Shown piece after piece: positions 8,946 to 43,644 of a stretch of 64,000 nt of DNA. Under the pieces are notes generated by a model. That model did not search any database, was not told where the DNA came from, and saw only the letters and a list, made by a program, of their open reading frames with translations. The translations under genes were made by a program, and so were the position numbers. This DNA is from Eledone cirrhosa. Taxonomy: Eukaryota. Position 1 is the stretch's first letter; each line of letters begins with the position of its first letter. The stretch covers positions 72,791-136,790 of the forward strand of contig CAXHJY010001528.1 in NCBI GenBank assembly GCA_964016885.1, in the 5' to 3' direction.

Positions 8946-9225
8946 TTAGAAAGTGAGGTTTTTTTACAAAATGAAAAATAACCGAGGTGTCCTACACGAG
9001 TGAAAATATAAAGAAAAAAAGATGAAATTGAAAATGCAACTGGAGTCTTATTTTTTTTTAAATATATATATTTATTTGGTTCTTTTACCACAGACCCTCC
9101 ATCTCAACTCTACTTTTGAAAAGCAGAAGAACTGCGAAACCGGTAAAGGAACCAAATAAATATATATATTTTTTTTAAAATAAGACTCCAGTTGCATTTT
9201 CGATTTCATCTTTTTTTCTTTATAT
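8946..9225. mobile_element. Tailed palindrome, family D, with degenerate hammerhead at 9112-9149
   Basis: ~84-bp inverted arms 9006-9089/9142-9225, ~60-nt tail on the left, (TA)n on both sides; ACTT-TTGAAAA-GCAG aagaa CTGC-GAAACCGGTA-AAGG. Confidence 0.7.
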
Positions 9226-10172
9226 ATATATATATATATATATATATATATATATATATATATATATATATATATATATATATATATATATGTATATATT
9301 ATATATATAATATGCATATATATGTATATATAAATATACACACACACGCACGCATACACACACTATATATATATATATATATATATATATATATATATAT
9401 ATATATATATATATGCATATTATATGTAAAAAAGCAGTCGTGTTTGTTTCTGAATAATATTTCTAATTTATCTTCATGTCAATGGTTTGTATCAATGCTC
9501 ATGAAATAACTTGTAGGTGGTGCCCCAGCATGGTCATAATCTAATTGGTGAAGTCAATAAGAGTAACCGTCGAAACAATTATTTTATCTGTTATACAATA
9601 AGAGATCATGGGGAGATAACTACCAAATGCATTTAGAGTTATTTTCCCTGAATTCAATTAGTTGTATTTTTTATTCGGTGTTGATTGCCAGCCGAATTAA
9701 TTATAAATATAAAAATAATATACAGCGAAATAATATACAGCGAAATAATATACAGCGAAATAATATAAAGCGAAAACCGACCCAAACCGACCCAAACCAA
9801 ACAGTGAGTGTGTTTTACTCTATTTTTCTGGCAAAATTATAATAACATGACCCTCCCAAATTATAACAATATGTATTTTATTCACTTGCGTTCATATGAC
9901 ATGTTATGTGATATATGGTCCTGTGTTGTGACTAAATAACATTGTGTTAGAATCATGTGCCCATTAAAACAAAGATTGTGTAATAACTGTTTATTTTACA
10001 CGGAATGCTATCGCCAATTTGTCGGCGGGGCGCAGCCGAAACACTGCTCTGGACCTATGTGTAGAATCTGCTACCCTCGCCCCTTACCCTTTCGTTCTTC
10101 CTTTGTCTAGTAGTACCTATATATACGAGCACACACACACACACAAAACACACACACATATATATATATATA

Positions 10173-10380
10173 TAACAAAGAAAGTGTGTAAGGAACCAGG
10201 TGGACCATAACGCCCCAGAGTACTCGATACTTATGGTAGTAGAGTAGGTAATAGGAAAGGAGTCAGGACCCCGACAGGGCTGAGCTCCGGCCGTTTCGAA
10301 AGCTAGATCCGAACGCGGAGTTCGAATCTAGCTGTCGAAGCGGCCGGATCTCAGCCGTCGTGGTCCTGACGCTTTTCCTA
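10173..10380 (-). mobile_element. Tailed palindrome, family A, copy 1 (most diverged)
   Basis: 79-nt tail plus imperfect hairpin 10252-10380 (TAGGAAAG...TTTTCCTA), flanked by TA. Confidence 0.8.
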
Positions 10381-10959
10381 TATATACACACACACACAGA
10401 CATATATATATGTATATATATATATATATGTGTGTGTGTGTGTGTGTGTGTGTGTGTGTGTGTGTATGTGTGTATGTGTGGTGTGTTTATAATATATACA
10501 CACACACACAAGTACTAACGTGGCTCTCTCTGACCTACACACTATAGATACTGGTATGCCCCAAGGCCTACTTACACATTCCCCATTCTGTCCATTAACG
10601 ACACACGCTCTTTGTGTGTCTGTATTGGACAACCGTCTGTCCCCTGTTCCCAAGATAAGTGCTTCAATTATTTGAGCAATGGAATAGCCTGCTCATGAAT
10701 TAACACACAAATGGCTGAGCATTCTGCAGACACGTCCAGACTTAACGTAGTTCTCGTGGAGATTCAATACGACACAGTGTGTGACAGAGTTGATAGAACC
10801 TTTGAAATACACGTACAATTCATTCCCCACGCCCCACCAGCTGAATGGACTGGGTTAACGTGAAATAAAGTGTCTTGTTCAAGGACGCCTTGTCTGGGAA
10901 TCGAACATATGACTTAAAGTAGGATCGAACTGGAACCAAGTGGTTGAAAAGTGAACCTC

Positions 10960-12335
10960 TTGACCACACAGCCATATCTACATCCATGTTGTCGTTGTGT
11001 GTGTGTGTGTGTGTATGTGTGTGTGTGTGTTTTCCTACATTGCTCTAGCTGGTACCTCGAACACATCGTCTCGTAGTCAGTAAACCCAACACCTTAACCA
11101 CACAGCTATACCTGTATCAAGGTTATAGCTGTGTGTGTGTGTTTTATGAGGTGAGAATGGAGTGTTATTCCCACCTTACTCTAAGCTGGTATCTCGAACA
11201 CATCGTCTCACAATTAGTAAACCCAACACCTTAACCATACAGCCATACTTGTTTCTATGTTGTCCTTGTGTATTTGTTTTTGTTGGAGTAAGGTGTAATT
11301 TCTACATTGTTCTATAGCTGGTACCTCGAACACATTATCTCACAGTTAGAAAAGCTAACCTCTAAACCACACAACTATACTAGTATTTATGTTGTCTTTA
11401 TGTTGTTGTTGTTGTTGTTGTTGTTTTGTGTGTTGGGGGGGGGGGGGGGGTTAAGCCTACATTACTCTTGGCTGGTACCTTGAACTTGAACACAATGTCT
11501 CACAGTTAGTTAAACCTAACACTTTAACACACAGCCATACCTGTATCCATATTATAGTTGTGTGTTTTTTTATGGGGTGAGGAGGAGGTGGTATTCCTAC
11601 ATTACTCTAAGCTGGTACCTCGAACACATCGTCTCACAGTTAGTAAATCCAACCTCTTTAACCACACAGCCATACCTATGTCTATGTGTATCTTTGTGTT
11701 GTTGCTTTTGTAGAGTGACAGGGAGAGGGTATTCCTATATTAGCCTAAGCTGGTACCTCGAACACATCGTCTCACAGTAGTAAATCCAACCTCTTTAACC
11801 ACACAGCCATACCTGTGTCTATGTGTATCTTTGTGTTGTTGCTTTTGTAGAGTGACAGGGGAGAGGGTATTCCTATATTAGTCTAAGCTGTACCTCGAAC
11901 ACAATGTATCACAGTTAGTAAACCCAACACTTAACCACACAGCCATACCTGTATCTATGGTGTCTTTGTGTTGTTGTTTCTGTAGGGTGGGGGTGGGGTA
12001 GGGTATTCCTATATTACTCTAAGCTGGTACCTCGAACACAATGTCTCACAGTTAGTGAACCCAACACTTTAACCTCACAGCCATACCTGTAATCTATGTG
12101 TCGTTGCGTTGTTGTTTTTGTAGGCTGAGGGTGAGGTAGGGTATTCCTACATTACTCTAAGCTGGTACGTCGAACACAATGTCTCACAGTTAGTGAACCC
12201 AACACTTTAAACCACACAGCCATACCTGTATCTATGGTGTCTTTGTGTTGTTGTTTTTGTAGGGTGAGTGTGGGGGTAGGGTATTCCTATATTAGTCTTA
12301 GCTAGTACCTCGAACACAATGTCTCACAGTTAGAA
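10960..12335 (-). repeat. ~137-bp tandem array, 10 units, each carrying a tRNA/SINE-head-like Pol III promoter
   Basis: ctggtacctcgaacac or a close variant at ~11049, 11186, 11318, 11473, 11612, 11750, 11888, 12024, 12162, 12302; minus strand TGGCTGTGTGGTTAA (A box-like) ... GTTCGAGG (B box-like). Confidence 0.85.
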
Positions 12336-12600
12336 AAAAGGCGTCTAATGTTCTCAGGTTTTATTTTGGCTTTCCTGCAAAATCTGCTTAGTTTGGGGAT
12401 TTCTTGCTCCTGAATTACAGTGGGGTTAATCTTCAAGGTGAGATCTTATAAACCCAACCCCACACCATCACCACCACACCACCACCGCTACCCCGACCCT
12501 ACCAGGATTTTAGTCTAATGTATTCCTTCCATAGCCTAGATATTTCATTTCAAGTTCCCATCTACAACCTCCTCGCTGAACTGATCTATTTGTTTTATTT

Positions 12601-42426: not shown

Positions 42427-42564
42427 CTTCTCACCCATGATAGCTTATCTGACTTCAATAGAAAATGCTCCTAGTCCATGCTTGCCATGCCTTAGTTACA
42501 CCTATGTTAACAACAGCTAGTTCATATAAGATATCATAGAAGTATTTTTAATAAGTTCCATTAC

Positions 42565-42760
42565 CAGCCCTGCCAACCTCTAAAAACCCAAAACGGTGAG
42601 TATCATGAAAAAAGTGCCCCAAAATGGGGAGAAATGAGGCAAAATGGGGAGATTTTTACATAAAGAAAGCTAAACCCATTTTCACAAGAGAAGACATCTC
42701 CCACCCACTCCAAAGTGGGTGGAAGATCTCCCCGTCGGACGAGGAGAGTTGACAGGTCTG
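42565..42760. mobile_element. MITE with 5-bp TSD (hAT5-like)
   Basis: TIR CAGCCCTGCCAAC / GTTGACAGGTCTG; ATTAC immediately on both sides. Confidence 0.7.
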
Positions 42761-43182
42761 ATTACTGTGAGGAATAGTAAATCTAGCATTACGACCTCTT
42801 TCTCTCCTTTAATGAATGAGATTCCCTCCAGACGGTGCTCCAACATGGCCGCAGTCTAATGACTGAAACCAATAAAGGAATAAAAGATTGGGTTATTAGA
42901 ATATGTCAACACAGTTAAATTATATGGGATATTATAATGGAGGTAAGATTTGAACTAACAAAACAGTCATGAATTTATAGTATTCCTCCTCACGGTCCTG
43001 TTATTGTTGCTTTTGTTGTTATATATAAGACCACCTTACAAATGAGAGCTGACACACATATGTGTATATATATATATACATTATATATTATATATATGTA
43101 TATTATTTTATATATGTATATTATATACATATATATATATGTGTGTTATTATATATATATACGTACATATATATATATATAT

Positions 43183-43420
43183 TTCGTTTCTGAATTTGTT
43201 TAGCAAGATTCTTTATCTGAAATCGTGTGTTGAAACCGATATTGTTATACTTTGGGAGGGTCATGTTGCCAATAAGAAACACACGCACCAGTTGCTTTCA
43301 CTTCAATTTATTATAATAAATTTATAAATTTATTATAAATTTATTATAATATATTGAAGTGAAACAACTGGTGCGTGTGTTTCTTATTGGCAACATGACC
43401 CTCCCAAAGTATAACAATAT
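43183..43420. mobile_element. Tailed palindrome, family E
   Basis: ~68-bp arms 43239-43307/43353-43420, AT-only spacer, ~56-nt left tail, (TA)n flanks; partial relative at ~9800-9872. Confidence 0.75.
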
Positions 43421-43465
43421 ATATATATATATATATATATATATATATATATATATATATATATA

Positions 43466-43644
43466 TAACAAAGGAATTGTGGTAAGGAACCGGATGGACC
43501 ATAACGCACCAGAGTACTCAATACTTAGGGTAGTAGAGTGGGAAATAGGAAAAAGAATGACCCCGACGACAGAGCTCAAGCCGTTTCGACGGAATAGCCG
43601 TCGAAACGGCTTGAGCTCTGCCGTCGGGGTCATACTTTTTCCTA
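43466..43644 (-). mobile_element. Tailed palindrome, family A, copy 4
   Basis: 80-nt tail 43466-43545; hairpin 43546-43644 with AATAG loop. Confidence 0.9.

Follow-up and report, generated by a model that had tools for sequence, protein, structure and literature searches.

The stretch of DNA analysed here (the window) comprises 64,000 nucleotides (nt) of Eledone cirrhosa contig CAXHJY010001528.1 (assembly GCA_964016885.1, positions 72,791 to 136,790 of the forward strand), and is AT-rich and rich in microsatellites. Within its TA tracts lie eight tailed palindromes from five sequence families (A to E), all within 35 kb, that behave like the ends of Penelope-like elements (PLEs) and, judging from their DNA marks, are probably members of that group. 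With the tail set 3', all eight read (TA)n, inverted arm, centre, arm, tail, (TA)n, and in each the tail is present on one end only. Local inverted repeats were found at all eight places by self-BLAST after masking of simple repeats. The self-inverted alignment scores (68-304) were above every one of 200 shuffles per element (maxima 32-62), and the eight folds contained 39-100 paired bases. These results bear out the eight (TA)n-flanked palindromes listed in a preliminary description of the window and its statement that one end is always unpaired, unlike in miniature inverted-repeat transposable elements (MITEs). Two symmetric, MITE-like elements with inverted ends in the same window (50092-50249 and ~48155-48430), taken as a contrast set, have no tail. 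The tailed palindromes are a real feature, although the layout itself is already known.

The elements are named by start position. Family A has four copies: 10173 (10175-10381, minus strand), the most diverged with six inter-arm differences and a tail motif at 10245-10220; 13876 (13878-14080, plus strand), with a hammerhead 3' half at 13961-13983, a predicted cut after 13983, an arm/tail border at 14000-14003 and a tail motif at 14009-14034; 31616 (31618-31779, minus strand), a perfect 82-nt mirror centred on GAAA; and 43466 (43468-43642, minus strand), with a 5-nt loop whose sequence belongs to the family and is oriented as in the tail-less arm. The other families have one palindrome each: D at 8946 (8947-9220, minus strand, tail 8947-9010); B at 14230 (14225-14407, plus strand, tail motif 14346-14364), its tail-less arm retaining an intact hammerhead 3' half; C at 15779 (15782-16100, plus strand), with a long non-mirrored centre, a hammerhead 3' half and a tail motif at 16025-16051; and E at 43183 (43183-43416, minus strand). 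Tails were counted from the end of the arm, a border made ambiguous by shared TAT or ATAT, and measure 80, 80, 80 and 79 nt in family A, 79-83 in C, 67-74 in B, 59-64 in D and 56-60 in E. Within that ambiguity they agree with the lengths first reported (79-80 for A, 80 for C, ~74 for B and ~56-60 for D and E).

The arms are 40-105 nt long, both copies being cut down, and the tail-less end of copy 10173 adjoins only ~4 TA units. The centre of inversion is variable, differing in all four A copies of the window, and in 31616, B and 13876 it coincides with a word that is self-complementary. Each A arm is nearest its own partner, with 0, 1 (an edge gap), 2 and 6 differences within copies versus 3-14 between them. 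The weakest palindrome is that of B (72% by BLAST), which has a 14-nt inversion nested in its tailed arm. The families had been called unrelated, and BLAST between them indeed revealed no likeness beyond short or AT-rich matches; nevertheless, the tails of A, B and C have a common hairpin motif at their start, so the families are not all unrelated.

The sequence beside the mirror centre consists of GAAA, a stem and then a UH triplet, which is the 3' half of a type I hammerhead ribozyme. Under a strict test this half was present in six of the eight elements, representing families A, B, C and D, compared to 7 of 774 background tiles. From this hammerhead 3' half the arms extend to a TAT word, after which comes the tail. 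In D the tail-less arm contains stem II, GAAA, a minimal palindromic stem III (9136-9145 on the plus strand) and a core with two changes, the whole motif being present in degenerate form. The full motif was found only in a separate, tail-less solo insert in (TA)n (32237-32318, plus strand), where a complete minimal type I hammerhead with its core at 32253 gave one match versus a mean of 0.02 in 50 shuffles and is Hydra-like in style by eye.

In families A, B and C the tail begins with ACTCT, which is followed by an inner hairpin of differing sequence and then ATYGAGTRC. This motif had eight matches in the window versus 0.11 expected (nine with a relaxed pattern), a count that is partly circular as the pattern was drawn from these very elements. 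An independent check was provided by the supplement of Craig et al. 2021 (PMC8557442), compared by eye. Three of the six Hydra-clade consensuses have this motif at an end, its outer pair being G-C by compensatory change: Hydra-1_Ajap begins with it, and in Hydra-2_Ajap and Hydra-2_Amil it directly follows the hammerhead and TAT-rich end; the remaining three show partial likeness at most. Because it lies at the beginning of one Hydra consensus and at the end of two others, the tail probably represents the opening part of the tandem unit that follows. Six motif words yielded 11 matches in the supplement, of which three are the consensuses named and seven have no hairpin in the passages shown; rough estimates of chance matches are ~1 in the Naiad and Chlamys files together and ~0.02 in the Hydra file. 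Folding energy of the whole tail was unremarkable (z -2.35 to +0.41), only the opening hairpin being recurrent, and the lowest-energy fold of the B tail differs from the shared hairpin.

Family A was further investigated in reads from restriction-site-associated DNA libraries, in which most molecules end at 13950, so that counts reflect abundance and not copy number. The 207-base A element was matched by 18,142 contigs (run X1) and by 23,367 and 24,083 reads (X18 and X19, in that order here and below); run X7 yielded two contigs. Reads pass into (TA)n at 14003 (3,450 and 3,076) and also at the tail end (1,425 and 1,711), recurrent junctions which indicate two fixed ends for the family; those at 14003 could come from inverted arms or from solo copies. 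Upstream of 13953, 1,222 and 1,343 reads continue with shared sequence (median ~80 nt, bounded by read length). Since this upstream sequence is shared and the four centres differ, the palindrome is not the master. The earlier proposal of non-coding mini-PLEs is thereby weakened, for a shared extension of at least ~80 nt points to 5'-truncated insertions of a longer template. At 13993, 11,421 of 12,123 X18 reads have a base other than that of copy 13876.

A further family A copy in (TA)n (31968-32043, plus strand) is permuted, with both ends at the arm/tail border: 59 nt of tail are joined at 32026/32027 (1-nt ambiguity) to the 17 nt that follow the predicted ribozyme cut. It is no local duplicate of 31616, since the tail sequences differ. 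Its structure is consistent with a unit bounded by the arm/tail border, direct tandems of A to E being unseen in the window, and also with reverse transcription that began at a second start site, reached a 5' end made by the ribozyme and then switched template. The chance of such a joint falling at the cut within the arm is roughly estimated at 1 in 15. This copy and the complete hammerhead at 32237-32318 were both missing from the preliminary inventory, which was correct for all eight palindromes but also passed over a solo tail-less fragment of a family E arm that ends at the arm/tail border (9844-9872, plus strand), a TA-flanked insert with a variant tail motif at 36065-36094 and no mirror arm (36023-36169, plus strand), and a decayed hammerhead core with a 59-nt stem-loop II, a TA stretch and the tail motif of family A at 39890-39911, a segment that ends at a short interspersed element (SINE) (39754-39958, plus strand).

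The window contains further inserts. Four inserts lie in a row in the single TA tract at 31547-32330 (copy 31616, a 113-nt insert, the permuted copy and the full-hammerhead insert), a case of repeated colonisation. The 113-nt insert (31834-31946) and 36186-36551 represent a TA-flanked family, two copies of which are 94% alike over 103 nt with one end in common. Three places (14540-14690, 34856-35010 and 358-465) hold members of a repeat family that adjoins (CA/TG)n or TA tracts and has a hammerhead core, stem II and GAAA (at 14656 on the minus strand); they are likely solitary ends of a further PLE family. Two inserts related to each other, at 21684-21811 (bordered on each side by (TA)n) and at 35860-35920, have a hammerhead-like core of minimal form on the minus strand, at 21783 and 35901, respectively.

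The PLE origin first proposed for the palindromes draws support from the hammerhead 3' halves, from a tail motif like that of Hydra elements, from insertion into (TA)n and from the two fixed junctions; it is very probable for families A to D and moderately so for E, the weakest case of the five. The general PLE layout, as given in PMC3846280, PMC8557442 (figure 2) and PMC11167929, likewise has a head-to-head inverted 5'-truncated copy (here in all eight elements), a tail on one end, palindromes at the inversion and two fixed 3' ends. PLEs also encode a telomerase-related reverse transcriptase (RT), accompanied in the mobile clades by a GIY-YIG endonuclease, and have pseudo-long-terminal repeats that contain a type I hammerhead and are arranged in direct partial tandem. 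The architecture of the proposed multi-family system in TA tracts is that of the published legend (PMC8557442, figure 2) and is not new. Families A, B and C are likely of Hydra type, a label drawn from DNA marks only. The Hydra clade of PLEs with a C-terminal endonuclease (EN+) targets (TA)n in 26 of 27 listed families (PMC8557442), a preference common to Naiads and hence not diagnostic alone; in the same source a hammerhead lies tens of bases upstream of a TAT-rich end, with the hairpin motif just past it in Hydra-2_Amil and Hydra-2_Ajap, an inverted 5'-truncated copy is known for Penelope-13_HM, and the list includes an octopus member, Hydra-1_Obim. Protein marks of the clade are RWK, DKT and a CxCX5C linker, with CCHH absent. 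Compared with the Hydra consensuses, A to E show no sequence match, no recovered open reading frame and no nearby core, and A to C have longer stem III loops and tails of 67-83 nt. The one Hydra-1_Obim word tried had no match in the window.

Three other published groups invite comparison. Dual minimal hammerheads on opposite strands, 100-700 bp apart, have been described as truncated PLEs (Cervera and de la Pena 2014, PMC4209133); here, in contrast, mostly the 3' half alone survives, since the inversion falls in or near stem II. Cephalopod Naiads share the (TA)n target, a tail and inverted copies but have an N-terminal endonuclease and no canonical hammerheads, and three octopus Naiad ends are unlike A to E by eye (PMC8557442, as far as its passages were compared); the hammerhead halves argue against Naiad membership of A to D, and no sequence match to Naiads was found. 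Non-LTR (long terminal repeat) retrozymes (PMC7229834; bioRxiv 10.64898/2026.07.22.740005) share the type I hammerhead, short non-coding units and a link to PLEs, and circular or cut RNA of that kind would explain the permuted copy. Retrozymes are, however, head-to-tail arrays with complete hammerheads, whereas A to E are dispersed head-to-head stumps; as no such array of A to E was found in the window, assignment to the retrozymes was rejected.

Relatives were sought with short words. The A tail word had no match in metagenome, genome and viral contig collections, nor had the E and C words in scans of contig collections, nor the A arm word in viral contigs. The 10 metagenome and 6 genome matches of the A arm word were rejected as chance, being at most 25 nt long and in GC-rich loci without TA tracts. 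Families A to E may already be present in Repbase, Dfam or the Zenodo library of PMC13282606, an octopus repeat survey that reports 31 recently active PLE families and, in the part available, describes no such stumps.

It is proposed, with rather better than even confidence, that the palindromes are heavily 5'-truncated insertions of several PLE families in which the mirror half was built anew each time. In experiments in vitro (PMC11167929), both strands were nicked and then extended by a PLE protein, which began synthesis at two positions of the RNA, one on each side of the tail. Such activity should give two cDNAs, one with and one without the tail, that are primed by opposite nicks and meet head to head. 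In the proposed insertion, a GIY-YIG/RT protein would introduce nicks into the two strands of a (TA)n tract; one would prime reverse transcription from the far end of the tail and the other from its start, where a TAT word would mimic the target. Synthesis of both cDNAs would stall in the structured hammerhead region, and the products would be fused head to head, in many cases at a short word that is self-complementary. The tail would form the beginning of the following tandem unit, its opening hairpin marking the second start site, and the permuted copy would have arisen when the enzyme changed template at the 5' end cut by the ribozyme. A search that fell short of most of the subscription literature found no paper on twin priming by PLEs or on the tail hairpin.

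Several results weigh against this reading. No PLE-type RT or GIY-YIG domain was detected with Pfam in the 148 longest of the 175 reading frames of the window; the palindromes themselves are too short to contain a frame, and the only Pfam matches, an RT at 63029-64000 and a zf-RVT fragment, are neither of them a parent. Five arm words from A to E had no match in the Craig supplement (PMC8557442), where line breaks in the file could mask one, and one Naiad consensus there also has a tail-motif match with the hairpin. None of the eight elements has a complete hammerhead core, that of D being degenerate, and none was present in the ~40 nt upstream of GAAA in loose read ends of family A; at the gathering score, Rfam found no hammerhead in the window and only two tRNA-like SINE heads. 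A long stem II, such as the 59-nt stem-loop at 39754, would explain stumps without a core. Family E has neither the strict hammerhead half nor the tail motif and D has no tail motif, and the tails (56-80 nt) are about twice the published 30-40 nt (PMC3846280, PMC8557442, PMC11167929). The permuted joint is a single event, absent among the 15 of 74 read joints that were listed; the asymmetric joints among those have mostly short sides and could be later deletions of unstable palindromes. Finally, both arms of 13876 carry two minority variants (13993/13885 and 13946/13932), which fits copying from arm to arm at least equally well, although one template, or later conversion between arms, would also yield them.

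The preliminary description proposed snap-back second-strand synthesis; in the form considered here, cDNA from the tail end of a PLE would fold on the hammerhead hairpin or a short palindrome, copy itself and rejoin the target at the TAT word. Besides the shared variants of 13876, the self-complementary words at the centres of 31616, B and 13876 speak for it, as do the nested inversion in B, where local fold-back evidently occurs, and a self-priming proposal already made for rotifer PLEs (PMC3846280, discussion). Against this, the 5-nt loop of 43466 is antisense to the tailed arm, with a variant at 13952, and the tail-less arm of D is longer than the tailed one. A tailed cDNA without that extra sequence could not supply it, so simple fold-back is insufficient for these two elements, and as the loops belong to the tail-less arm, priming from two start sites is favoured. 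Moreover, tail-less sense copies without a mirror stop at the same border (31968 and 9844), and 9 of the 15 listed joints connect the inverted arm to 13997 or later, nearly tail-only sequence. Snap-back is thus weakened and appears rather unlikely, and twin priming is preferred to it by a clear but not decisive degree.

Compatible with either priming model is the possibility that short non-coding masters, non-autonomous PLEs or retrozyme-like, were mobilised in trans and that the palindromes derive from them by truncation or re-copying. None of the copies has a reading frame associated with it, derivatives of this kind exist in the literature, and family A is very abundant, as judged by its X1 contigs, while cephalopod Naiads are described as remnants (PMC8557442, in part); yet no tandem array of A to E is present in the window, and the variable centres and continuing upstream sequence preclude the palindrome itself as master. 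This origin is tentatively entertained, at less than even probability. The inverted repeats, the TA context and the tail hairpins could also suggest DNA elements; the fit is least poor for E, whose arms are long and nearly perfect and which lacks a ribozyme mark. A MITE or terminal-inverted-repeat transposon with one extended end was rejected, as one arm stops 56-80 nt inside the element and the A centre is variable. Helentron/Helitron2 elements have short, fixed, asymmetric inverted repeats and a Rep-helicase parent; these too were rejected, given arms of 40-105 nt with a variable centre. With hammerhead halves alongside, and with the symmetric elements at 50092 and ~48155 tail-less, an origin from DNA elements is very unlikely. 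Assemblies are troubled by TA tracts and palindromes, and fold-back reads or local template switches in TA tracts could in principle produce such structures. Up to six inter-arm changes, family-constant tails and junctions recurring in independent reads largely refute artefacts of assembly or replication, which are hardly credible.

The remainder of the window contains other repeats and gene-like segments. An uninterrupted 324-residue C-terminal RT part at 63029-64000 (minus strand), presumably of the long interspersed element (LINE) type by its motifs, abuts with its 3' end a ~7.5-kb TA-rich tract (55400-62950), and a LINE 3' fragment at 33930-34850 (minus strand) has the weak zf-RVT match. 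One SINE-like family occurs at 16356-16535 and more than 10 other places; a second, with tRNA-like heads (Rfam matches at 4460 and 53961), occurs at 4382-4533, 40806-40958 and 53886-54029. Tandem arrays of 138-nt and 100-nt units are located at 11032-12337 and 6765-7160, respectively. An inverted repeat pair of 84-86% identity ~1.5 kb apart (21415-21553 and 22809-22947) possibly represents old DNA transposon ends, and a unique 114-nt insert between long TA tracts (79-192) showed neither mirror nor motif. Exon-like stretches with splice-like ends on the plus strand (2744-3100, 5050-5270 and 6315-6510) had no Pfam match in the frames scanned.

How the inverted repeats and tail of PLEs are made has been called undefined (PMC8557442), and no RNA ends were found at the hammerhead cut site in the experiments of PMC11167929. 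Taken jointly, the palindromes may be products of two-strand priming, the tail hairpin (RCTC, inner hairpin, ATHGAGY) a clade-wide signal, conserved between corals, sea cucumbers and this genome, that sets the second RT start at a TAT word resembling the target, and the permuted copy a record of hammerhead cutting in vivo; this combined claim is put forward as possible, short of an even chance. The surprise is modest, and the value lies in a shared tail hairpin and one rearranged copy that would make the insertion mechanism testable. The hairpin could flag Hydra-type stumps that have no open reading frame and are likely filed by annotation pipelines as MITEs, SINEs or unknown repeats. As the copies are many, short and independently built, loop orientation, junction words and cut-site joints can be counted in them, and, if the proposal is true, thousands of such stumps would constitute a natural read-out of the PLE insertion cycle.

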